Below, in pieces: positions 19,370 to 35,556 of a DNA stretch of 64,000 bases. Made by a program: the position numbers and the translations under genes. Position 1 is the first letter of the stretch; every line of letters starts with the position of its first letter. Below the pieces are notes generated by a model. It saw nothing but the letters and a program-made list of their open reading frames with translations, did no database searches and had not been told where the DNA came from. Origin of the DNA: an uncultured Alphaproteobacteria bacterium (GTDB taxonomy: Bacteria; Pseudomonadota; Alphaproteobacteria; RF32; CAG-239). The DNA lies in NCBI GenBank assembly GCA_934248075.1, contig CAKQKH010000001.1, positions 51,771 through 115,770 on the forward strand, read 5' to 3'.

Positions 19370-21439
19370 ATGAAAGAATTCAATATGGCAGAAGAAACTA
19401 CCGCTCCTCAAACTGAAAACTCTGCTTCGGCAACCGTTGCCGCGGCTGAGACAGTCGCGCCTGAGTCACAGGCCGTTGCTGACGAATCCACAAGCATTTG
19501 TCTAGTTAAAGAGCGCTTTGAAATTGATTATAATTCCCCATTGCCCGAACTTGACAGTAACGGAGCCAAAGCTTTTGCCGTAAAAGACAAGATCAAACCC
19601 GAGCGAGAACTTTTTGCGCTTTTGTGCGACAACAATTTTCCGCCGCGTTTGTCAATGTTGCCATATCTCAAAGCTCTTGATCACCCCAATTTGCTCAAAT
19701 TGGTAGAATACAGCGTGGTAGATTATATTCCTCAAAAGACCATGAATATGGCGCTCATATACAATCGCCCCACTGGCCCCAAAGCATCTGACAAAATTTC
19801 CACCGAAAAAATGCCTTTTGAAAAATTCAAGTCTTTGGTATTGTCATTGGCTTCCGGCTGTGAAGCTCTCAAAAGCTACAATTTAACCCATCGCGCCATT
19901 CGCCTTAACAACATATTTTTCAAAGATGCCGAATGTTCTGAACTGGTTTTAGGTGATTGTGCCGCCTCTTTTCCGGCCTTATATCAGCCATCGGCCTATG
20001 AAACCATCGAGAGCATGCTTTGTTTGCCTCAGGGTCGCGGTCAAGGTAGCAGCGGCGATGATATTTATGCTTGCGGCGTGGCCTTGCTGGGTCTGGCTTT
20101 ACAACATGACATTTCTCCGGAAATGTCCACGCCTGAACTTCTGCAGCTCAAGCTTAAAAAAAGCTCTATTTCTGCTTTGACCGGAGGCGACAAACTGCTG
20201 AGTCAATTTGTGCCGGTGCTTAAAGGTATGCTTGATGACTCTGCCGAATCTCGTTGGAACAGCACTCAGATTTACAATTATCTTGACGGCAAGTCCTCAA
20301 GTTTTAACAACGAATCCGGTGAAAAATCCATGCGAGCGCTTACCATTGGCGGTGAAAAATATTATACCGCCAAATCCACCGCTCTGGCTTTGCTGGAAAA
20401 TCAAGAAAATGCCCTCACCGTCGTGCACAACGGCAAATTACTGGAATGGATTAAAAACGGCTTGGAGAATGAAAAACTTTATAATAAAATAGACAAGCTG
20501 ATCCAAAACGACAAAGAAAACCCCAACAACCGCTTGCTGATACCGCAGATATGCGTGTATCTTGATTACAGCCTGCCGGTCAAGTGCGGTGATATTTATG
20601 TTTTTCCGAGTGGTTTGCCCAAGGCCGTATTCCATTATCTCAAAACCAACCAATCTTTAGAAGGTTTTTATCAGGTTCTCTCCGGAGATTTAATCAAAAT
20701 TTGGTATCAAGAACAGCCTTTTCTGCACGCCCCCGCAAACAGCAATGAGTTTCGGGTCTATTTGGCGCGCAATGATTATGGCTACGGCATAGATCGTATT
20801 ATGTATGATTTTGATGATGATTTGCCCTGCACCAGCCCGCTTATCGGCCGCGAGTTTGTAAACTCCCCCTCCAAGCTTTTGCGCGCGCTTGACACCAACT
20901 ATCCTAACAACAAAAACGCAAAACCTTACGACAAAAACATTATCGCTTATTTGCGCTGCAAAATGGGCAAAAAAATTGACGGTATTTTAACCGATCTCAA
21001 CGCCAATCAAGATCTTTTGCAAGCTGCGTCCATTATGCGACTATATGCCAATATCCAAAACAAAAGCGGTCCGGTTCAACTATTTAACCTCACCCAGTGG
21101 CTGATGAAAACCGCTCAACCGATTATTCAGGGCTATCATAATCTCAAGTATCGCAAGTTTTTAGAACGCGAGCTGGTCAAGATATCCAAGACCGGCAAGA
21201 TTATTGGCTTATACGAGATTTTGGATAATGATGAAGCCAAACGCAAGGATAGAGAAGAGTATTCCGAAGCCCTCAAAAAAATAAATATCCTAACCGCCGA
21301 ACGCAATCGCATCTTATCCGGCAACGACAAAGTTGATGAAGAATCCAAAGATCTGGCTATCAAATTCGGATCAATTTTAGCTGTTTTAACCATGCTGAGT
21401 TCATTTATTTTCAGCACTATTTATTGGGCATTAAAATGA
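19370..21439 (+). CDS. Protein-kinase-like (probably catalytically dead) domain protein with a large unknown C-terminal region and a C-terminal TM anchor
   Basis: Kinase-fold landmarks are AFAVKDK (VAIK-like), HPNLLKL, LTHRAIRLNNIFF (HRD loop with D->A), LGDCAASF in place of DFG, DIYACGVALLGL and SRWNSTQIYNYL. There is no Gly-rich loop. The last ~25 aa, ILAVLTMLSSFIFSTIYWAL, are hydrophobic. ATG 19385 is an alternative start. Confidence 0.5.
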   Translation: MKEFNMAEETTAPQTENSASATVAAAETVAPESQAVADESTSICLVKERFEIDYNSPLPELDSNGAKAFAVKDKIKPERELFALLCDNNFPPRLSMLPYLKALDHPNLLKLVEYSVVDYIPQKTMNMALIYNRPTGPKASDKISTEKMPFEKFKSLVLSLASGCEALKSYNLTHRAIRLNNIFFKDAECSELVLGDCAASFPALYQPSAYETIESMLCLPQGRGQGSSGDDIYACGVALLGLALQHDISPEMSTPELLQLKLKKSSISALTGGDKLLSQFVPVLKGMLDDSAESRWNSTQIYNYLDGKSSSFNNESGEKSMRALTIGGEKYYTAKSTALALLENQENALTVVHNGKLLEWIKNGLENEKLYNKIDKLIQNDKENPNNRLLIPQICVYLDYSLPVKCGDIYVFPSGLPKAVFHYLKTNQSLEGFYQVLSGDLIKIWYQEQPFLHAPANSNEFRVYLARNDYGYGIDRIMYDFDDDLPCTSPLIGREFVNSPSKLLRALDTNYPNNKNAKPYDKNIIAYLRCKMGKKIDGILTDLNANQDLLQAASIMRLYANIQNKSGPVQLFNLTQWLMKTAQPIIQGYHNLKYRKFLERELVKISKTGKIIGLYEILDNDEAKRKDREEYSEALKKINILTAERNRILSGNDKVDEESKDLAIKFGSILAVLTMLSSFIFSTIYWALK

Positions 21440-24269: not shown

Positions 24270-25118
24270 ATGACAGACACCACTTCTCAAGATAACTTTG
24301 ACGCTCTGCTAGACGAATTTATTTCCAAGCAATTATCTGATACTGAAGATACGGTTGAAGAACTGCACGAGCTAAAAGAAACCAATCGTCCGCAGCCTTC
24401 TTACCCTGGTGAAGAAGCCGAAACTATCAACAACCTCTATCCGGAAGAGCGCCGCTTGTATGATGCCTACCATAACTTCCGTATTGCCATAACCAATTTG
24501 GCGCAGGCCGCAGAGGTAGAAGTTCCGGAATTTCAGTTCACCGCCATGCAAATATACCCGCGTTTTCGCCCCAACCGCGCCAACAAACTTAATCAAGATA
24601 TTTTCAACTCCTGGTCAGCCATGGTTACCGCTCAGCCGGTCAGACTTGCTTCTTTACCGGAAAACCCCTCTGACGAGCAGATTCTATCCTTCGCTGAAAA
24701 AACTACCGACGAAAACCTACAAAACGCGCTTATCTCATACGTTGAGATTCTAATTGAGCTTGACAGTTGTGAAATTGCCTACAATTTACGCAAAGCCAAG
24801 GCCGAAAAACGCCGGATAGAAAAAGAAATTTTTGAAGAAAATCAACATCGCAAAGAGCGCATTCAAAAATACATTGAAGCCATCAGAGCTCAAAATTTCC
24901 CCATTGATGCCGAGCGTTTGGTCAACAATTACTTCAAAACCGCCCGCAAAGATCCCGACGGCGCCCAAAAGATTTTAGAGACCAACCCTGCAACCTATGC
25001 TCCCATTCAAGTTGATAAAATTCCGCCCCGATTCTTTGGCCTGATTAAAACCAAACCGGAAGACGGTATCAGAGTAAACAAAGAAATTGGCAAATTTCTC
25101 AAGGATCTCAAAGTCTGA
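24270..25118 (+). CDS. Acidic cytoplasmic hypothetical protein (operon gene 2)
   Basis: 282-aa ORF with AGGAG 8 nt upstream, 10 nt after gene 1. No recognisable domain. Confidence 0.45.
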   Translation: MTDTTSQDNFDALLDEFISKQLSDTEDTVEELHELKETNRPQPSYPGEEAETINNLYPEERRLYDAYHNFRIAITNLAQAAEVEVPEFQFTAMQIYPRFRPNRANKLNQDIFNSWSAMVTAQPVRLASLPENPSDEQILSFAEKTTDENLQNALISYVEILIELDSCEIAYNLRKAKAEKRRIEKEIFEENQHRKERIQKYIEAIRAQNFPIDAERLVNNYFKTARKDPDGAQKILETNPATYAPIQVDKIPPRFFGLIKTKPEDGIRVNKEIGKFLKDLKV

Positions 25119-25208: not shown

Positions 25209-26852
25209 ATGACAGCAAGACAAGATGCTCAAAAAAGTGCCAACTCAGGCCGCAAAGAAGCTGAAGATACCAGAAAAGACCCAAACCGCGGAAAAGTTAC
25301 CGGTAATACTACCGGCACCGCGCCAACCCCTGTCAAAACTACGCCTCCAAACGATAATACCACCAAGGTGGACGAAAACCAGTCTCCAGATCAGAAAACC
25401 GATTCCGACAAAACCACTAAGGTGAGTGAAAACCCGTCTCCAGATCCGAAAACCACTGAAGTGAGTGATCTTGATTCTCTGACACACCTTCAGCTTCCTG
25501 ATCAGAACAAACCAACCGACAAGAACACCGCTGAAATTACTCCAACTAAAGACCTTGATGAAATCAATGACGAGGATGATGACAAATTTGATATTCAACA
25601 AGGCGATTTTATTGACTTTTTAATGAAAGACGTGGTTTTGGCCTTTGCGGCCTATTGCGGCAAAAAAGTTACAACACCTTTTGGTATTGCTGCTTACCAG
25701 CTTGGATCCAAGATGTATCATGGAGCCAAAGATCATCTCTGGGATCCGGCTTGGGCCGAAGTAGAAGATGGCTGGAATAAATTCAAGAACAATGTCGTTG
25801 AAGCCTGCCGTAGTGTTGGCGAGTATGAAATCAAGCACGAATTCAAAAATGATGATGAAACCTCCAAATCTGGCAACGACGCAATAAAACAACATAACAA
25901 AACCATCAAATATTACAATCAAAACGTTTTTGGCAATGATGACAGCAAGATGCCGGATTCTTCAATATTTGACCATTTTGCTGAAGCCGTTATGAATGGA
26001 GATATTTCTGATACCCTCCCTGTTAAAGAGGGTCAGGTTTACTTTTGTAAGGATATTGCCAACGACCAACAACAACCTCGTTCAGACCTTTATTGGTTTG
26101 ACCCCAAAAACAAATTAAACATTCCTATCGGTTCGCGTATGATGCAGCAGGCAATTGCTTTAGCTGTTGAGATGACAAAACAGGCAAACGAAAAAATAAC
26201 CGATGAAAACAAAAAGAAAGAAATAAAAGCCAAGTTAGTCAAAAACTTTTCCAAAGTTGCTAAATCTTTTGCCGAGATAGAAGCTCCTGAGAATATTTTT
26301 GTTCGAAATATGATCACGGCTCGCCAGTTGCATGACTGTGCTCTCACTAATAAAAATCCGGATAAGGACACACTCGATCTCTATACCGCTGAAGCTCGAA
26401 AAATTTATTTAGCTGAATACATCAAGATTCAAAAGGGCGAAAGTAAATATAAAAACCTCAAACAACTTCTTGATGCCAGCTACAAAGCCGTAGAAGCTGC
26501 ACATAAAAACATTAGAGAAGGCCGCTATGTAGAAAAAGGAGTTGATCCGCAAACCATCAAGAATGAACCTCTTGACCGGTTACTGCAACAAAACGCCGAA
26601 AAAATTCGCACTACCGATGCTAAAACTCTGCGCCAAGAATTTATGGATACCATCATGAACGACAAAAAAAATAAAAACGCTATGGAAAACATCAATAATG
26701 TTATATCTGCTCTGGAAAATGATAAGCAAAAGGTTGATGACCGGCGCAAAAGATGCGATGATATCAAAAACAAAAAAACAAATGGCAAAGATAAAGATAA
26801 TAATAAAAGCGATAATACAAAACCAACACAATCTCGTGGTAACTCAAGGTAG
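25209..26852 (+). CDS. Large hypothetical protein with disordered repeat-containing N-terminus (operon gene 3)
   Basis: 547-aa ORF with AAGGAA upstream. The N-terminal ~130 aa are T/P/K/D/N-rich with an 18-aa repeat. The rest is a K/E-rich globular or helical region with no motif I recognise. Confidence 0.5.
   Translation: MTARQDAQKSANSGRKEAEDTRKDPNRGKVTGNTTGTAPTPVKTTPPNDNTTKVDENQSPDQKTDSDKTTKVSENPSPDPKTTEVSDLDSLTHLQLPDQNKPTDKNTAEITPTKDLDEINDEDDDKFDIQQGDFIDFLMKDVVLAFAAYCGKKVTTPFGIAAYQLGSKMYHGAKDHLWDPAWAEVEDGWNKFKNNVVEACRSVGEYEIKHEFKNDDETSKSGNDAIKQHNKTIKYYNQNVFGNDDSKMPDSSIFDHFAEAVMNGDISDTLPVKEGQVYFCKDIANDQQQPRSDLYWFDPKNKLNIPIGSRMMQQAIALAVEMTKQANEKITDENKKKEIKAKLVKNFSKVAKSFAEIEAPENIFVRNMITARQLHDCALTNKNPDKDTLDLYTAEARKIYLAEYIKIQKGESKYKNLKQLLDASYKAVEAAHKNIREGRYVEKGVDPQTIKNEPLDRLLQQNAEKIRTTDAKTLRQEFMDTIMNDKKNKNAMENINNVISALENDKQKVDDRRKRCDDIKNKKTNGKDKDNNKSDNTKPTQSRGNSR
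25359..25468 (+). repeat. Imperfect in-frame tandem repeat (54-nt period, 2 copies plus a partial third)
   Basis: ACCACCAAGGTGGACGAAAACCAGTCTCCAGATCAGAAAACC (25359-25400) against ACCACTAAGGTGAGTGAAAACCCGTCTCCAGATCCGAAAACC (25413-25454), about 36/42 identical. A partial ACCACTGAAGTGAGTGA follows. The repeats encode TTKVDENQSPDQKT / TTKVSENPSPDPKT / TEVSD. Confidence 0.8.
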
Positions 26853-26857
26853 TAAAC

Positions 26858-27343
26858 ATGAAAAAACTGCTGAAAATTTTTCGCACTGCTCTGGTTGGTC
26901 TGCTTTGGACTTATTTATTCCTGATTATGTCTAATTATCTGATGTATCAACTTTGGAGCTTTAACTTCATGTCAGCTCACAGTTGGCAAACCATGTCCGG
27001 CTATTGGAACTCAGGCGGCGTTATCAACACCGCGCCGGATTACATCTTTTTACTAATGTTGTTTTCTCTGCCGATTATGTGGCTCGTTGGCTGGATTCTT
27101 TTGCTCAAGATAGAATACTTAAGCATTCTGCTTTATCCGCTTAATGTTTATAATCGCCACATCGTCAACAAATATGGCCATAATTCTTCTCGTGTAATTC
27201 TTCGTAACATCAAATCCAGTCAAAAGATTATTGAAGAAATAAAAGAACAATTAGAATCTATAAAGCCGGCCAAGAGCAAAGAAGTCAACAATATCCGACA
27301 GGAAGTGCAAAAAAAATTGGAAGAGCTGAATAAAAAGAATTAA
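26858..27343 (+). CDS. Trp-rich membrane protein, hypothetical (operon gene 4)
   Basis: 161 aa with about 3 TM segments and a K/E-rich C-terminal helix. It starts 5 nt after the gene 3 stop. Its N-terminal module is paralogous to the next gene. Confidence 0.5.
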   Translation: MKKLLKIFRTALVGLLWTYLFLIMSNYLMYQLWSFNFMSAHSWQTMSGYWNSGGVINTAPDYIFLLMLFSLPIMWLVGWILLLKIEYLSILLYPLNVYNRHIVNKYGHNSSRVILRNIKSSQKIIEEIKEQLESIKPAKSKEVNNIRQEVQKKLEELNKKN

Positions 27344-27431: not shown

Positions 27432-28694
27432 TTGAAACCTTTATTGATACTGATGCGCATTGTTTTTGTTGGTATTTTCTGGAGCCTTTTGTTTCTGGAA
27501 GGTATTCGCGTCATTATGCTCACAAACTGGCATTTTGACATCTTGCGCTTGGATCATTGGTTATATGCTTGGAATCTCTGGCTCGCCGGTTGGGTTATTG
27601 ATGACCCCAAAGAATGGGCCTTTGTCCTGATTATTCTGACCTTTATTCCGGTTTGGCTCACCGGTTGGACGGCTCTGAGCATGATTCATTGGGGCAATTT
27701 GTTGGCAGACATTCTTGAACTTCCGTTAAAAATATTCAAAAAACTATTTGAAAATCAGGTGCAAAAAATTGCCGCCTCTGCCAGCGTTAAGGTTGTCAAA
27801 AAGAAAAAATCTTATAAAGAAATCCGCCCTCGCAGCATTCGCCCGCCACTTGAAGACAGCGCCTATGCCTTGCCGGCGGATCGCAAAGCCGCTTTGTCCG
27901 GAATCCCCGCCAAACCCAAGGCCAAATCACCACAAGCTGACAACAAGCCTGTTGCCACCGGACCAGTTGAGTTTAATCACTCTCTGTTTCAATTTGATGA
28001 TGATGACAACACAGATTTTGACTTTGACCTTTTTGATGATAGCAAAGCCCAAAAAGAATCCGCCTCGGCTCCGGCTCAGGCTGAAGAACCACAACCGGCC
28101 AAATCAGACAAATCTGACAATCGCACCTCCAATCGTGGCAAGCCAGACCGTCAAAACCATCAACGCGGCGGCGCTCAGACGTCATCTCGCGGCAGCAGCA
28201 ATTCAACCTTTGATATTCTCAAACAAAAAGGTTATGAGATTATTACCGGCGCCACTATCAAAAACACCCTTATTGACTTCATTGGTGTTTCCGGCTCCAC
28301 CATTTGCCTGTGTCTCAATGACAAAGAACCCGGAGACTGGCTTGCTGATGAAGAGCGTTTTAATGATGAAGAACCTTTGTGGTTTTCTGAGAGTTCCCAC
28401 CGTATTTCTCCGGTTCGCAAAATAGATGTTGCCCGCAACATTCTTACTGAAAAATTGAGCGAAGCCAACCTTCCGTATAAAATTGAAGCTTTCGTAATTG
28501 AACAAATCGGCAATATCATTAATGCTGAAGATATGTTTGACATTTGGGATAATATGAATATTAACGTAACTCGTATTGATCGCGGCACCCCCAAAGAAAT
28601 TAAGCTTTTTGCCAAAACTTTGGAAGACGCCGACGGCAAAGTTGATAAAGCTGATTTTGAAAAAATCAGAAAATTAATTCGTGGAATTGCATAA
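27432..28694 (+). CDS. Membrane protein with paralogous Trp-rich N-terminal module, disordered linker and unknown C-terminal globular domain (operon gene 5)
   Basis: The track starts this ORF at TTG 27372. I prefer in-frame TTG 27432 because GGAGA sits 9 nt upstream. That start also gives MKPLLILMRIVFVGIFWSLLFL, which is colinear with gene 4's MKKLLKIFRTALVGLLWTYLFL. Confidence 0.5.
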   Translation: MKPLLILMRIVFVGIFWSLLFLEGIRVIMLTNWHFDILRLDHWLYAWNLWLAGWVIDDPKEWAFVLIILTFIPVWLTGWTALSMIHWGNLLADILELPLKIFKKLFENQVQKIAASASVKVVKKKKSYKEIRPRSIRPPLEDSAYALPADRKAALSGIPAKPKAKSPQADNKPVATGPVEFNHSLFQFDDDDNTDFDFDLFDDSKAQKESASAPAQAEEPQPAKSDKSDNRTSNRGKPDRQNHQRGGAQTSSRGSSNSTFDILKQKGYEIITGATIKNTLIDFIGVSGSTICLCLNDKEPGDWLADEERFNDEEPLWFSESSHRISPVRKIDVARNILTEKLSEANLPYKIEAFVIEQIGNIINAEDMFDIWDNMNINVTRIDRGTPKEIKLFAKTLEDADGKVDKADFEKIRKLIRGIA

Positions 28695-28709: not shown

Positions 28710-30941
28710 ATGGCTGTTGAAAAAAAAGGAGAAGAATGGGAAGAATATAATAGCGCCGTCCGCTGGATGGTGATTACGGTTATAATTTCTACCCTGATTA
28801 CAATTTTTTTGGCTTTGGTCGCCATGCCGCTTGGTTATCTTATCGGCACTGGTATTTCCAAAGACAGTATCAATGATGTCTCTCGCTTTTTTAATCTGGT
28901 ATTTATGAAACCGGGATATCTGTATTCTCGTTATTGGAATTGGTTTAAACAGCTACTCAACTATCACGGTGATTTTTCTTTTAGCTTATGGATACCGATT
29001 CTTCCTTTCATCAGTTTTCCTACCGGACTAATCACCGGACTAATCACCAATCCCTACCGTTTTCAGTCAAATATTCATGGCTCGGCTCGCTTAGCCACGG
29101 AAAAAGACATCAACAAAATGGCTCTGCTTGGGTTTGATGGCTTTTGTCAGGTTGTCGGCAAATTCAACAATAAGCTTCTTTTGCTCAAGGAAACCCTTTC
29201 CACTCTGTGCTGCGCTCCTCCGGGTACTGGTAAAACTGCCGGCGTGGTTATTCCAACCATTTTTCACTCGCCCACTCTTAGCATTATCGTTAATGACCCT
29301 AAACCAGAGTTGTGTTTCCAAACCTCCGGCGCTCGTGCCAAAGTAGGGCCTGTGTTCATCATCAACTGGGGTATGGAAGATAACCCTGCTGAAGGTATTT
29401 ATTATCCAAGCTGGAACCCGCTTTCACCTGGGGCTGTTCCGGCTCCTGGTCCATCGCGCGATATGTATATCGATTCCATGTGTAAAGTATTGGTGGAAGA
29501 CCCCAAAGGCGGCGCTGACCCTCACTGGTCAACTACCGGTCGCGCGGCGCTTACCGGATTTTTGCACTTTATTGTTTCCAAATGCGAAAAAGCTCGCGCC
29601 AATGACTACTTTATCGGACGCGTCTATGAGGGCAAACTCGATGATGAAGATCGCAAGGTTCTTGAGGGTTATTATCTGGAGATGAATGATCCGTCTTCTT
29701 CCCGCGCTTTGCAAAATTTGCGTCAGGGAACCCTTAATATAGATAATTACCTGCCAATTGGAACTTGGGCGCTATTACCGGAGAAATGGATTGGCCACGA
29801 AGCTTGTATTGCCATGATTTTGGAATGGATTACCGAGGCTCAAATCAAACAATCACAAGATATTAAACGCCGTATGGATGAAGGCGATCAAATGGCTGCC
29901 ATGGCCGACCCCATGCGTGATTTGCTGGAGGAAGCCATTGAAGAGGCTCGCAAATTCGGTTACGCCCAACGCTGTATTGTTGAGTTGAGCCAGCTTAGCG
30001 CCATGCCTGATAAAGAGCGCGGCTCCGTAATGTCCACCGCCTTTGCCGGCATTGGCATTTTCAAAAACTCGGCCGTGGTTGCCCGCACCAGTTTCAGCGA
30101 CTTATCGTTTAAGGATTTACGCGGTCTAAAAGACCCCATTACCGGAGAGTTCAAGCCTATTTCGGTTTATCTTTCAGTCAACCAGGTAGATGCCCGCGCT
30201 TTGAGTGTTATTTCCGGCACCTTTATTGACCTTATGTCATCATACCTTATTGCTAACCCGCCCAAATTTCATAACCCCACTGACGGCGTTATGGGACCAT
30301 ATTCCTGCTTGTTCGTGCTGGACGAGTTTCCAACCATGCCCAAACTAAAAGCGGTTATTGACGGTCCGGCGGTAGGACGTGGCCAAAAAGTGTCTTATCT
30401 GCTTATCGGCCAAGACTTAGGCCAAATTTCCGGTAAATATGGTAAAGATGACCTCGAAACCGTTATTTCTACCACCGCATGCAAAGTTATTCTGTCACAA
30501 AACAACGAACAAACCGCCCAGCGTTTTTCTAAAATGATTGGTAACAAAACCGTTCAAACCACCTCTTTTTCCAAAAATGAAGGCGGTTTTAGCAAAGGCA
30601 CCAACCCATTTGCCAAAAACGTCAGCTACCAGTTGCAAGGTGTTTCGGTTATCTCAACCACTCAGCTTTTGAGCTTGCCAATGCTCAAACAAGTTGTGCT
30701 TATGCAAAGTTACATTGATCGCCCGATTATGGCCGATTCCCCCCGTTGGTATCTTGATAAAAAGATGAAGGCTTTGCGCAACCTGCCCACCGCGCCAAAT
30801 GTTCCTGACTGGATTGTTGCTCAGCGTGAGGATATCAATGATGATATGCTGGCCAAGCTTGGAATTGACTATGATCCTAATGAAGATTTTGATGATTCTG
30901 AGTTTGAAGATGAAGAAACAGAGGATTCTGCTGAATCCTAA
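28710..30941 (+). CDS. virD4: Type IV secretion coupling protein, VirD4/TraG family
   Basis: It has two N-terminal TM segments, the HGSARLATEKDI entry motif and Walker A CCAPPGTGKTAGVVIPT. Other matches are NDPKPEL, HWSTTGRAALTGFL, Walker B CLFVLDEFPTMPKL, LLIGQDLGQISGKYGKDDLETVISTTACKVILSQNNEQTAQRFS and an acidic C-terminal tail. Confidence 0.82.
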   Translation: MAVEKKGEEWEEYNSAVRWMVITVIISTLITIFLALVAMPLGYLIGTGISKDSINDVSRFFNLVFMKPGYLYSRYWNWFKQLLNYHGDFSFSLWIPILPFISFPTGLITGLITNPYRFQSNIHGSARLATEKDINKMALLGFDGFCQVVGKFNNKLLLLKETLSTLCCAPPGTGKTAGVVIPTIFHSPTLSIIVNDPKPELCFQTSGARAKVGPVFIINWGMEDNPAEGIYYPSWNPLSPGAVPAPGPSRDMYIDSMCKVLVEDPKGGADPHWSTTGRAALTGFLHFIVSKCEKARANDYFIGRVYEGKLDDEDRKVLEGYYLEMNDPSSSRALQNLRQGTLNIDNYLPIGTWALLPEKWIGHEACIAMILEWITEAQIKQSQDIKRRMDEGDQMAAMADPMRDLLEEAIEEARKFGYAQRCIVELSQLSAMPDKERGSVMSTAFAGIGIFKNSAVVARTSFSDLSFKDLRGLKDPITGEFKPISVYLSVNQVDARALSVISGTFIDLMSSYLIANPPKFHNPTDGVMGPYSCLFVLDEFPTMPKLKAVIDGPAVGRGQKVSYLLIGQDLGQISGKYGKDDLETVISTTACKVILSQNNEQTAQRFSKMIGNKTVQTTSFSKNEGGFSKGTNPFAKNVSYQLQGVSVISTTQLLSLPMLKQVVLMQSYIDRPIMADSPRWYLDKKMKALRNLPTAPNVPDWIVAQREDINDDMLAKLGIDYDPNEDFDDSEFEDEETEDSAES

Positions 30942-30943
30942 CA

Positions 30944-31549
30944 ATGAGGAAACCGTTCATGCTGGAATGGTCAAAACCAACGCCAAAATCGGATATTGAC
31001 ACTCCGCATAATTCTTTGCGCGAGCATAGCGCTGATATTATCTCTCCGAAAACACCGTCGGCTCCGTCAGCATCTTTGACCTCAATCATCTACCCTGATG
31101 AAACCCCCTCTCCTCAGCAAATGAAAAATTTGTTGTCTGACTGCATAAACAACTTTGCTCTTCACAATATTGAACTCAAAGAATGCTCATATCAGCCGCA
31201 AACTTGGGCTGAAATGTACAAGAATTACATTGAATATACTCGTTTGCGGCAAAACTTTTTAAGATTTATCAGCCTAACCAAAAGTGACGAATGTAAATTA
31301 ATTGGGTTTGATGATGAGGATATGGAGCTTCTCAAAAATAAGCAATCTCCCGAAAACTACAATACTCACCTAAAAATACCTTTTGATTTTGGCGGTAAGC
31401 TAAATCTTGATAATATCTGTCTTATCAAAACTAACCCTCTTCATGACCAAATTCACCAAATGATAGAAATGCAAATTGGCTGTGGTTTTCTCAAGCAACA
31501 TAAAATAATATATATTCCATGGTTTGACGGGAGCCTTTACCATGAATAA
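30944..31549 (+). CDS. Putative HNH (beta-beta-alpha-Me) nuclease toxin, colicin/pyocin DNase-like C-terminal motif
   Basis: YNTHLKIPFDFGGKLNLDNICLIKTNPLHDQIH aligns by eye with the colicin E9 DNase motif as I recall it, [33 protein letters not shown]. The H..GG..DNI..P..H..IH spacing agrees within 1 residue. It starts 2 nt after the virD4 stop. Confidence 0.5.
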   Translation: MRKPFMLEWSKPTPKSDIDTPHNSLREHSADIISPKTPSAPSASLTSIIYPDETPSPQQMKNLLSDCINNFALHNIELKECSYQPQTWAEMYKNYIEYTRLRQNFLRFISLTKSDECKLIGFDDEDMELLKNKQSPENYNTHLKIPFDFGGKLNLDNICLIKTNPLHDQIHQMIEMQIGCGFLKQHKIIYIPWFDGSLYHE

Positions 31550-31988
31550 GGAACTTATTGACAAACTTTGCAATCAACCTGCTTGTGTCTCTTTTCCGCC
31601 GGCTGTAAAAGCTGATATCGTCAGAGCCTTAGAGCAACTTAAAGAACTAAAATTTGCCGCTCCCACGCCCGATTATATGGCTTTTTTGAGCTATTTGGAT
31701 GGCTACTATTATGACGGATTAGAACTATTTGGCATTAGAACCCATTTGCGGATTTCCAAACAATACACTTTTTCCAATTTGGTTGAGCAGAACCGCAATT
31801 TTTGCCAATACACTTTTTTCATTGGCAAACTAATTATCGGACGCCTGTCAGAACATTTTATAATTTATGATGAACGCAACAAACTATACGCCATTATAGA
31901 TCGTGTAAACCTATGCCCAATGGTTGAATTTTCTGATTTTGACGATTTGTTATCAACTCTATTGCAATTTTGCAGTGTTACCGCCTAA
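31542..31988 (+). CDS. SUKH/SMI1-KNR4-like putative immunity protein
   Basis: VRALEQLKELKFAAPTPDYMAFLSYLDGYYYDGLELFGI, then FIIYDERNKLYAIID and EFSDFDDLL, follow the SUKH-1 pattern (L..lP.dY..FL...nG...g...fgi ... vy.id ... sF.d.l). ATG 31542 overlaps the toxin ORF by 8 nt. Confidence 0.45.
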   Translation: MNKELIDKLCNQPACVSFPPAVKADIVRALEQLKELKFAAPTPDYMAFLSYLDGYYYDGLELFGIRTHLRISKQYTFSNLVEQNRNFCQYTFFIGKLIIGRLSEHFIIYDERNKLYAIIDRVNLCPMVEFSDFDDLLSTLLQFCSVTA

Positions 31989-34992: not shown

Positions 34993-35556
34993 CTATTGAA
35001 ACGTCCAGGTTATAACATTTTTATCGCCCGACTTACAGCTGTCGGTTGCTTTTTTAATATTCATCGGCAAATTACTATCGCCGGCGGCATCTGTTCCTGC
35101 CGGTAAAGTAAATAGTTTATCATTAATCTTGAGTTGATATAAGTCGCTGTTTTGCCCATTACTCCAGTTAATTTGACTAAGATTTATACAACTGCGGACC
35201 GGTAAATCCTTAAATGTTATGTCAAAATAATTTTTACCTAAAGTTGATTGTTTAATTTCAACTTCTCCATTTTGTCTATGCATTAACTTATTGCCCGCAA
35301 TCATTTGCGACGGCACCAAACCTTCTTTTTTAATTTTTTCAACTTCAGTAGGAATAGAGGCATAATCACCCTCAAGCCTGTACCGAGAAACAACATTTCT
35401 CTGCACTTCCTGAATTTCGTTCTCTATCATATTTTGCTTAAAAGCCTCAAACATTCCGCCAATAAGTTTCACGGCGGCAACCGTCATCACCGTAACCACT
35501 GATATTACGGCTATTGCCTCCATCATTGTTGCGCCTTGTTGATTACATTTTAGCAT
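34993..35556 (-). CDS. Type IV pilin-like / pseudopilin-like protein
   Basis: Prepilin-type N-terminus QQG/ATMMEAIAVISVVTVMTVAAV, with Gly at -1, Glu at +5 and a hydrophobic helix. There are two Cys in the C-terminal third (RSC...DSC). Confidence 0.5.
   Translation of the reverse strand: MLKCNQQGATMMEAIAVISVVTVMTVAAVKLIGGMFEAFKQNMIENEIQEVQRNVVSRYRLEGDYASIPTEVEKIKKEGLVPSQMIAGNKLMHRQNGEVEIKQSTLGKNYFDITFKDLPVRSCINLSQINWSNGQNSDLYQLKINDKLFTLPAGTDAAGDSNLPMNIKKATDSCKSGDKNVITWTFQ

Follow-up and report, generated by a model that had tools for sequence, protein, structure and literature searches.

A predicted YhhZ/YrhA-type HNH toxin/immunity pair beside a VirD4-type coupling protein gene in uncultured gut Alphaproteobacteria

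The Escherichia coli K-12 protein YhhZ, which joins a T6SS_HCP domain to an HNH domain, has been assigned to group 32 in the classification of His-Me finger nucleases (PMC5714182), and Hcp-ET1, in which Hcp is combined with an HNH-DNase domain, is reported to be an antibacterial DNase delivered by a secretion system of type VI (T6SS) in E. coli (PMC6730261). In E. coli, the gene overlapping the end of yhhZ, by 4 nt, is yrhA. Hcp-ET1 of Shiga toxin-producing E. coli is presumably the orthologue of YhhZ. A different route of delivery, by a VirB/VirD4 type IV secretion system (T4SS), has been described for TfdA of Stenotrophomonas maltophilia, an HNH-superfamily (GHH) DNase of 899 aa that acts in interbacterial killing, has an adjacent immunity gene and carries its nuclease at the N-terminus and a VirD4-binding XVIPCD at the C-terminus (PMC11253643). 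A 2012 survey of polymorphic toxins stated that the classical ones do not use the T4SS (Zhang et al. 2012). Here we analyzed a 64-kb stretch of DNA (hereafter the window) from an uncultured alphaproteobacterium (contig CAKQKH010000001.1), in which three genes of the + strand, spanning positions 28710-31988, encode a VirD4/TraG-type type IV coupling protein (T4CP), a predicted HNH DNase toxin and a predicted SUKH immunity protein. The hosts of this locus are abundant, uncultured Alphaproteobacteria, mostly of the human gut, and belong to a poorly known lineage; FliX and other neighbours of the locus are in keeping with this class.

Toxin domain and immunity protein both belong to a known type, recorded until now only on carriers of the T6SS, the type VII secretion system (T7SS) and the RHS type. 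What is new is a minimal stand-alone cassette with an invariant N-terminal peptide and a conserved place beside a VirD4-type ATPase. With YhhZ/YrhA and Hcp-ET1/ETI1 the window pair shares a homologous toxin domain over about 125 residues; the immunity proteins of the window and of yhhZ both belong to the YrhA family, and toxin stop and immunity start overlap in both. However, the Hcp carrier of YhhZ and Hcp-ET1 gives way in the window to a 5-residue W-x-W leader followed by a disordered linker, the neighbour is a T4CP and not a T6SS, and the active site reads N-T-H...H...H instead of the V-H-H...H...(F/T) of YhhZ. The SPbeta-type LXG toxins of Bacillus subtilis (T7SS) also have this toxin domain at their C-terminus and a YrhA-family gene downstream, but they carry a 200-aa LXG domain for the T7SS, keep the HH doublet and are encoded on a Gram-positive prophage or plasmid. 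PAAR, RHS, PT-HINT and PT-TG toxins likewise share the C-terminal domain and the downstream immunity family with the window, but they are large, multidomain proteins with trafficking or release modules, whereas the window toxin has none. The effector/immunity pairs of the Xanthomonadales T4SS (X-Tfe/X-Tfi) offer a precedent for T4SS delivery, TfdA being an HNH-superfamily DNase with an adjacent immunity gene. Compared with TfdA, the window toxin is a protein of 196 aa with a C-terminal nuclease of another HNH subfamily and an N-terminal motif, with no XVIPCD and no VirB gene nearby. A further likeness is found in VbhT/VbhA of Bartonella, a toxin-antitoxin pair located in a T4SS/T4CP locus and whose toxin is a T4SS substrate; it differs in that VbhT, a FIC toxin, has a BID signal at its C-terminus and is part of the conjugative Vbh system.

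The HNH toxin domain and its SUKH immunity protein

The open reading frame (ORF) that follows the T4CP gene runs, in its longest form, from 30944 to 31549 (201 aa); residue numbers below are those of this ORF, counted from ATG 30944. Its C-terminus carries the motif H142-x7-GG-x4-DNI-x6-PLH-x2-IH171, with a threonine (Thr141) at the place of the first His of the colicin HH pair. The original prediction had reported an HNH nuclease with such a motif, with the catalytic His retained and the first His replaced by Thr. We confirmed both the motif and the two residues, and corrected the spacer between DNI and PLH from eight residues to six. Close homologues (n=44), each of about 185-200 aa, start with MWEWS or MWDWS. 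An alignment of 34 sequences sharing 32-80% identity revealed that P136-E-N-Y-N140, H142, I145, P146, F149, G150, G151, N157, H167 and H171 were invariant, so that the general-base His (H142), the structural Asn (N157) and the two helix His (H167 and H171) were kept in all 34. Position 141 was Thr or Val across the window subfamily (N-[TVI]-H in the comparison of motifs).

An AlphaFold2 (AF2) model built on the family alignment had a predicted local distance difference test score (pLDDT) of about 96 over residues 50-201. Analysis of the model with DSSP placed strands at 139-143 and 158-162, a helix at 163-179 and a last strand at 188-193 of the 201 residues. In this model H142 ends the first strand, N157 precedes the second and H167 and H171 stand on the helix, and the toxin core is predicted to have the beta-beta-alpha-metal arrangement. 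The structured part of the toxin (31109-31546) comprises a helical/beta pre-HNH part and this core, within which the HNH motif PENYNTH...N...H...H occupies residues 136-171 (nt 31349-31456). Residues ~50-201 form one conserved domain, and the toxin domain therefore exceeds the last ~60 residues. In nine toxin orthologues the helical pre-HNH region (residues ~16-92) showed similarity to the Pfam family CRISPR_Cas9_WED, with a best score of 25.3 bits for a cut-off of 27. The matches were sub-threshold, came from one close clade (P0036-P0042) and are probably due to chance, and this lead was dropped.

We then searched 1.84 billion representative proteins with the family profile (HMMER, E<=1e-3) and obtained 505 matches. 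Profile positions ~39-189, corresponding to the whole structured domain, recurred as the C-terminal domain of long proteins whose N-terminal modules were Tox-PAAR-like (T6SS), RHS repeats with an RHS core, PT-HINT, PT-TG or LXG, with E-values of about 1e-12 to 1e-15 for the C-termini of these toxins. In one case the gene of a PAAR-type relative followed genes for ClpV, VgrG and a DUF2169 protein. The window toxin itself matched the C-terminus of B. subtilis SPbeta-type LXG toxins in tblastn (E 1e-7 to 3e-8) and residues 286-381 of E. coli K-12 YhhZ in BLASTP (34% identity over 101 aa, E 2e-11). Alignment of the 34-sequence family with YhhZ by hhalign extended over 121 columns, with a probability of 97% and an E-value of 7.7e-11. 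The Pfam HNH model (PF01844, cut-off 21.4 bits) did not match the window toxin; homologues reached through the profile scored 22.0, 23.6 and 21.4 bits. The identification of an HNH nuclease-toxin domain is thus supported by the family profile, the invariant residues and the YhhZ match, rather than by a direct match to a curated model. Among the homologues we also noticed a protein in which the same HNH domain is joined to a fragment of a Mu-type portal protein (P0135), another of 665 aa with the HNH domain three times in tandem (P0106), and further short homologues with Lys/Arg-rich N-termini.

The columns of H142, N157 and H167 aligned with the HH...N...H of YhhZ and of the polymorphic toxins, and three versions of the active-site motif could be distinguished across the family. 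The polymorphic toxins read VHHK-P...GG...N...PYH-x3-T, keeping the first His and having Thr in place of the last distal His. A bridging group, VHHKLPIHGGG...H-x3-H, keeps both, and the window subfamily, N-[TVI]-H...H-x3-H, keeps the last distal His and has lost the first. Every version retains the general-base His and the Asn, together with two or more His that could act as ligands, and Thr141 alone is therefore no argument for inactivity. The window toxin has N-T-H and not V-H-H, and no carrier domain of the T6SS, T7SS or RHS type; it therefore represents a divergent subfamily of the YhhZ domain and not an Hcp-ET-type effector. These comparisons identify the protein as a predicted stand-alone His-Me finger (HNH) DNase toxin domain of the YhhZ/Hcp-ET1 type.

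The domain had been described as colicin-like in the original prediction. It does belong to the same superfamily as the DNases of colicins E9/E7 and pyocins S2/AP41, with the same spacing of 15 residues between base His and Asn and of 4 between the distal His. However, neither Colicin-DNase nor any other Pfam family was matched at E<=1, Thr takes the place of the first His, the predicted immunity protein is of the SUKH and not of the Im four-helix type, and the receptor-binding and translocation domains of colicins and pyocins are absent. When the protein and the profile were compared with PDB sequences, the only outcome was an alignment to pyocin AP41, which was insignificant (E 0.43 and 0.93, respectively) and in the former case coincided exactly with the HNH motif of the AP41 DNase. 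As the relatives are of the YhhZ/Hcp-ET1 type, we did not retain the colicin-like description.

The next gene (31542-31988, + strand) encodes a protein of 148 aa. It matched the NCBIfam model NF038335 (YrhA family) with 60.6 bits for a cut-off of 55. A Pfam scan of the window protein itself gave no match, and orthologues exceeded the Pfam gathering scores for SMI1_KNR4 (P0051, 26.1 against 25.4; L001, 26.4 against 25.4) and SUKH_5 (L001, 30.4 against 27). The suggestion that this is a SUKH/SMI1-KNR4 immunity protein rather than a colicin Im protein was therefore well founded. Of the profile checks called for at the outset, those on the immunity protein led to the YrhA family and those on the toxin itself found nothing in Pfam or NCBIfam. 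The window protein aligned to YrhA of E. coli (E 1e-6) and to the protein encoded downstream of the B. subtilis LXG-HNH toxin (E 5e-6), which is annotated as YrhA family and matches SMI1_KNR4, SUKH_5 and SUKH_6. A profile of the window orthologues reached the genes that follow RHS, PAAR and LXG-like toxins with 56, 41 and 25 bits, and the RHS-linked downstream protein is itself SMI1_KNR4 in Pfam (41.4 bits). No signal peptide was found and the protein is predicted to be cytoplasmic, which fits an inhibitor acting on a DNase in the cytoplasm. Each locus has one SUKH gene, no orphan cassettes were seen, and the immunity gene is kept in every locus having sequence 3' of the toxin gene.

The match to the YrhA family and the homology to toxin-linked SUKH genes indicate a cassette of the YhhZ/YrhA type and not of the colicin/Im type, and the fact that both halves have counterparts in established toxin/immunity systems is strong evidence for a cognate cassette. 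The 148-aa protein is accordingly a predicted cognate SUKH (YrhA-family) immunity protein. In our view the two genes very probably encode a true pair of HNH toxin and SUKH immunity protein, of the YhhZ/YrhA type.

Gene boundaries and the N-terminal leader

The toxin gene had been placed 2 nt after the virD4 stop, and was thought to be fused and translationally coupled to the virD4 3' end. However, all 33 aligned homologues start at the position of the second Met, with the sequence M-W-[ED]-W-S, and an AGGAA Shine-Dalgarno-like sequence lies ~8 nt 5' of the corresponding ATG 30959. Because of these two observations the toxin most likely starts at ATG 30959, giving a predicted gene from 30959 to 31549 (+ strand) for a protein of 196 aa. 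The distance from the virD4 stop to this ATG is 17 nt, in a frame that differs from that of virD4, and the gap between the two genes in orthologous loci varies from 10 to 131 nt. The toxin gene is thus closely packed behind virD4 and probably co-transcribed with it, without fusion, and the translational coupling to virD4 had been overstated.

The situation is different at the other end of the toxin gene. The immunity ATG lies at 31542, a start backed by orthologues of 146-148 aa, and the end of the toxin gene extends 8 nt into the immunity gene (ATGAATAA). This 8-nt overlap agrees with the original prediction, and an overlap of 8-14 nt is kept in the window and in loci L001, L004, L005 and L007, so that translational coupling between toxin and immunity genes is likely from their arrangement. 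No terminator-like site was found on the + strand between the T4CP, toxin and immunity genes. A convergent yacG gene begins directly 3' of the immunity gene.

The original prediction had seen no LXG, PAAR, RHS, WXG or Sec signal features in the N-terminus of ~130 aa. Pfam and NCBIfam scans did fail to detect a recognised trafficking domain in the toxin, but the alignment revealed a short conserved leader, M-[WL]-[ED]-W-S (30959-30973; MLEWS in the window), followed by a linker (residues 11-55, 30974-31108). M6, W9 and S10 of the leader were invariant and W7 nearly so. A leader M-W-[DE]-W-[ST] was present in every HNH orthologue of the two lineages described below, including those without an adjacent T4CP, and also on distant relatives with linkers of 100-250 aa. 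Among the remaining ORFs (85 aa or longer) of the loci and the window, none carried it. We considered that the motif might be conserved merely because of the virD4 3' end, and rejected this explanation because the motif persists where the T4CP is not adjacent. The linker varied in both length and sequence and is predicted to be disordered (pLDDT 46-67). In the second lineage it is rich in Q, P and Y and reaches ~250 aa. Two further features were observed in the long-linker toxins (L042, L046-L061; P0065-P0077). Where their structured domain begins, W-E-W occurs for a second time (MWEWQF.Q..LPGMDL), and their C-terminus bears a conserved extension, SGG-x4-DRSVYAGF, which the window subfamily lacks.

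The coupling protein operon and its conservation

The T4CP (28710-30941, + strand, 743 aa) matched the Pfam families T4SS-DNA_transf (2e-55), TraG-D_C (1.9e-22) and TrwB_AAD_bind (1.5e-16). It has N-terminal transmembrane segments, an intact Walker A (PPGTGKT), an intact Walker B (VLDEFP) and an acidic C-terminal tail. Its nearest annotated counterparts, at 35% identity, are VirD4 proteins encoded in virB8-9-10-11-D4 clusters of alphaproteobacterial megaplasmids. Five genes of the same strand precede it, encoding a DUF6476-like small membrane protein whose orthologues match PF20082 (23954-24259), the soluble p282 (24270-25118), the hypervariable, low-complexity p547 (25209-26852), the small membrane protein p161 (26858-27343) and the membrane protein p440/p420 (27432-28694), which is kept beside the T4CP. 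The gene order around p282 and p547 is kept in orthologous loci. Identity there amounts to 45-76% for p282 and, in most alignments, to 26-41% for p547 where p547 can be detected at all.

The protein p440 has a membrane domain of four helices at its N-terminus and a further domain at its C-terminus, with an acidic, disordered stretch between them. Over 1000 homologues were found, all unnamed. The block DKEPGDWLADEERFNDEEPLWFSESSHR of the C-terminal domain was invariant in 26 homologues. Residues 1-109 of p440 (27432-27760) aligned with p161 (26858-27343) in BLASTP with 29% identity (E 2e-13), indicating that p161 is a paralogue of the p440 membrane domain. No curated family matched p282, p547, p161 or p440, and PDB sequence searches returned nothing for the T4CP, p440 and p547 and only chance-level matches for p282. 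We found no match to p440 in the plasmid collection; this collection lists three E. coli chromosomes as plasmids (H17-H19).

The order DUF6476-like, p282, p547, p161, p440, T4CP, HNH, SUKH was found in about 25 of the 33 species representatives. It sits at a fixed chromosomal site, with genes for a sigma factor and RluD upstream on the opposite strand. Within the region the T4CP was the most conserved protein, at 81-96% identity to the window protein and always in the company of p282, p547, p161 and p440 (L004-L041, L046-L061). The corresponding values were 74-87% for the sigma factor, 64-86% for RluD, 56-82% for RNase G, 35-65% for the SUKH immunity protein and 32-60% for the HNH toxin. A scan of metagenomes revealed a second, divergent lineage, with a T4CP 59-68% and an HNH toxin 27-38% identical to those of the window. 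The second-lineage toxins are longer (336-418 aa) because of their Q/P/Y-rich linker, and the order p161-p440-T4CP-HNH-SUKH was found in every locus of this lineage with enough upstream sequence. One 3-kb contig with the pair (L019, JAISFX010000123.1) is filed under a 'Lactobacillus sp.' metagenome-assembled genome, probably through a binning error.

The operonic linkage of the pair with a T4CP, noted at the outset in the window, is therefore kept in about 25 of 33 species and also in a second lineage, at a T4CP identity of just ~60%. This result indicates that the link between toxin and T4CP is real and old, having been kept in two divergent lineages of gut Alphaproteobacteria. With its orphan T4CP, the operon gives the impression of an uncharacterised core system in these bacteria. 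Strong conservation of the T4CP together with unnamed membrane partners, with no VirB gene nearby, raises a question separate from that of the toxin.

Export of the toxin, alternative roles and neighbouring features

Recruitment of the toxin by a T4SS, as the original prediction had suggested, is a plausible hypothesis. In such a scheme, toxin and immunity protein would be made together, and the immunity protein would block the DNase in the producer. The M-W-[DE]-W-S peptide and the flexible linker would stand in for delivery modules of the Hcp, PAAR, LXG or RHS type and offer the toxin to the coupling ATPase, whose gene lies just upstream. The ATPase would pass it on to a type IV secretion channel with its genes elsewhere. 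Once injected into neighbour cells, the DNase might degrade their DNA, and sister cells would survive because they carry the immunity protein. We give roughly even odds to this explanation as a whole, a YhhZ/YrhA-type cassette with T4CP-fed delivery, and for the T4CP-dependent export of the toxin taken by itself our confidence falls a little short of even. If the ATPase does export the toxin, the locus would provide a T4SS-delivered DNase of a design unrelated to that of the Xanthomonadales XVIPCD effectors, an N-terminal peptide as candidate signal for recognition by a coupling protein, and a weapon for competition in a gut lineage about which little is known.

Several observations weigh against this explanation. 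Direct scans of the toxin against Pfam and NCBIfam gave zero family matches, and a Foldseek comparison of its AF2 model with the PDB gave no significant whole-fold match (E>=0.34), the best-ranked, non-significant structures being Cas8-HNH, the HNH domain of Nme1Cas9, McrA, EsaD and the Tox-GHH of teneurin. The first His of the HH pair of colicins and YhhZ, which is a metal ligand in colicin E9, is replaced by Thr or Val in the window subfamily. Neither VirB4, B6, B8, B9, B10 nor B11 was detected in the window or in 65 related loci with 8-10-kb flanks, using the two nearest plasmid systems as queries. The toxin lacks an XVIPCD and any C-terminal tail past the nuclease fold, and the T4SS signals known to us are C-terminal or internal, not N-terminal. 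Nine loci (L001-L003, L028, L030, L031, L034, L035, L038) contain the pair without an adjacent T4CP operon; they represent about 7 distinct genomes, since L002 and L035 lie on the same contig and L001-L003 encode the same protein. In these loci the pair stands after rpmJ and is followed by the same genes (peptidase S11, MipZ, PGM) as in T4CP-linked loci. Finally, the pair occurs as one copy and is inherited vertically. In this it differs from classical polymorphic toxin loci, whose trafficking domain and variable C-terminal tips with orphan cassettes it also lacks. A literature search on the RF32 lineage and secretion systems yielded nothing relevant.

Part of these observations would be explained if the pair were not exported at all but formed an intracellular system, of the addiction, stress or abortive-infection type, that merely stands at the end of a T4CP operon, the DNase acting on own or invading DNA once the immunity protein is lost or titrated. 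The lack of a recognised trafficking domain or signal peptide on the toxin, the T4SS channel genes missing from the 64-kb window and the related loci, the persistence of the pair without T4CP, and its single-copy, vertical inheritance at a fixed chromosomal site beside housekeeping genes are all in line with such a role. However, the distant relatives with an identifiable N-terminal module are all secreted toxins (Hcp, PAAR, RHS, LXG, PT-HINT, PT-TG), the invariant N-terminal peptide followed by a length-variable disordered linker resembles a delivery leader, the place beside the T4CP is maintained even where T4CPs share just ~60% identity, and PADLOC found no defence-system model for the 8 operon proteins. 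We therefore regard an intracellular pair as rather unlikely, although it is to be taken seriously. In another reading, the VirD4-like ATPase, the two paralogous membrane partners (one with the PD-(D/E)XK/NERD-like domain described below) and the soluble operon proteins could constitute a chromosomally fixed, VirB-independent machine, with the DNase as leader-recognised cargo or as a DNA-processing subunit. This appears unlikely to us; if true, it would mean a T4CP signal of a new class and, for a polymorphic-toxin domain, delivery by a new route.

The HNH protein could also be a nickase or end-processing partner for T4CP-driven export or uptake of DNA, with the SUKH protein as a regulator. 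T4CPs are relatives of DNA translocases and dock relaxosomes, and the high conservation of the T4CP within the region suggests a core function. General scans found no relaxase family among the matches of the operon proteins, no search having been aimed at relaxases. The operon may moreover encode a second nuclease-like domain with which the HNH protein could cooperate, as the C-terminal ~160 aa of p440 gave a faint signal of the PD-(D/E)XK/NERD-like kind (E 0.12 for Pfam NERD) and, in a Foldseek search with an AF2 model of moderate quality, resembled the nickase Nt.BspD6I (E 0.01, probability 0.82), followed by R2 endonuclease, Mus81 and Card1. However, this nuclease assignment of p440 is weak, and the homology to toxin/immunity systems is specific and two-sided, involving both genes. 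The fast divergence of HNH and SUKH proteins relative to the T4CP is unlike that of a fixed enzymatic partner, and the pair survives without T4CP in some genomes. A DNA-processing function is in our opinion very unlikely. The replacement of the first His by Thr or Val throughout the subfamily and the lack of a direct Pfam HNH match also led us to consider a catalytically dead HNH domain serving as a DNA-binding or adaptor module. This is extremely improbable, given that the general-base His, like the Asn and the two distal His, does not vary in the alignment, that the sister subfamily with an HH has itself lost the last His (H...T), leaving a base and two candidate ligands in each, and that an immunity gene is kept in every locus with downstream sequence. 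Many active HNH enzymes, such as the Cas9 HNH and T4 endonuclease VII, lack the HH doublet. Delivery of a YhhZ/YrhA-type toxin through the neighbouring T4CP thus remains our preferred explanation, at the strength given above.

Other features of the window were observed outside the operon. A 689-aa protein encoded at 19370-21439 has a weak eukaryote-type kinase domain (Pfam Pkinase, E 2.3e-5, below cut-off) and is kept 5' of the sigma factor gene in locus L005. A type IVb pilin-like gene (34993-35556; Pfam PilS, Bundlin), also kept in L004, stands beside fliX and dksA. Finally, between positions ~34000 and 54000, the G+C content falls from ~42-45% to ~34-39% over ~20 kb, and the genes in this stretch are housekeeping genes (rho, mnmE, mnmG, ABC transporter).

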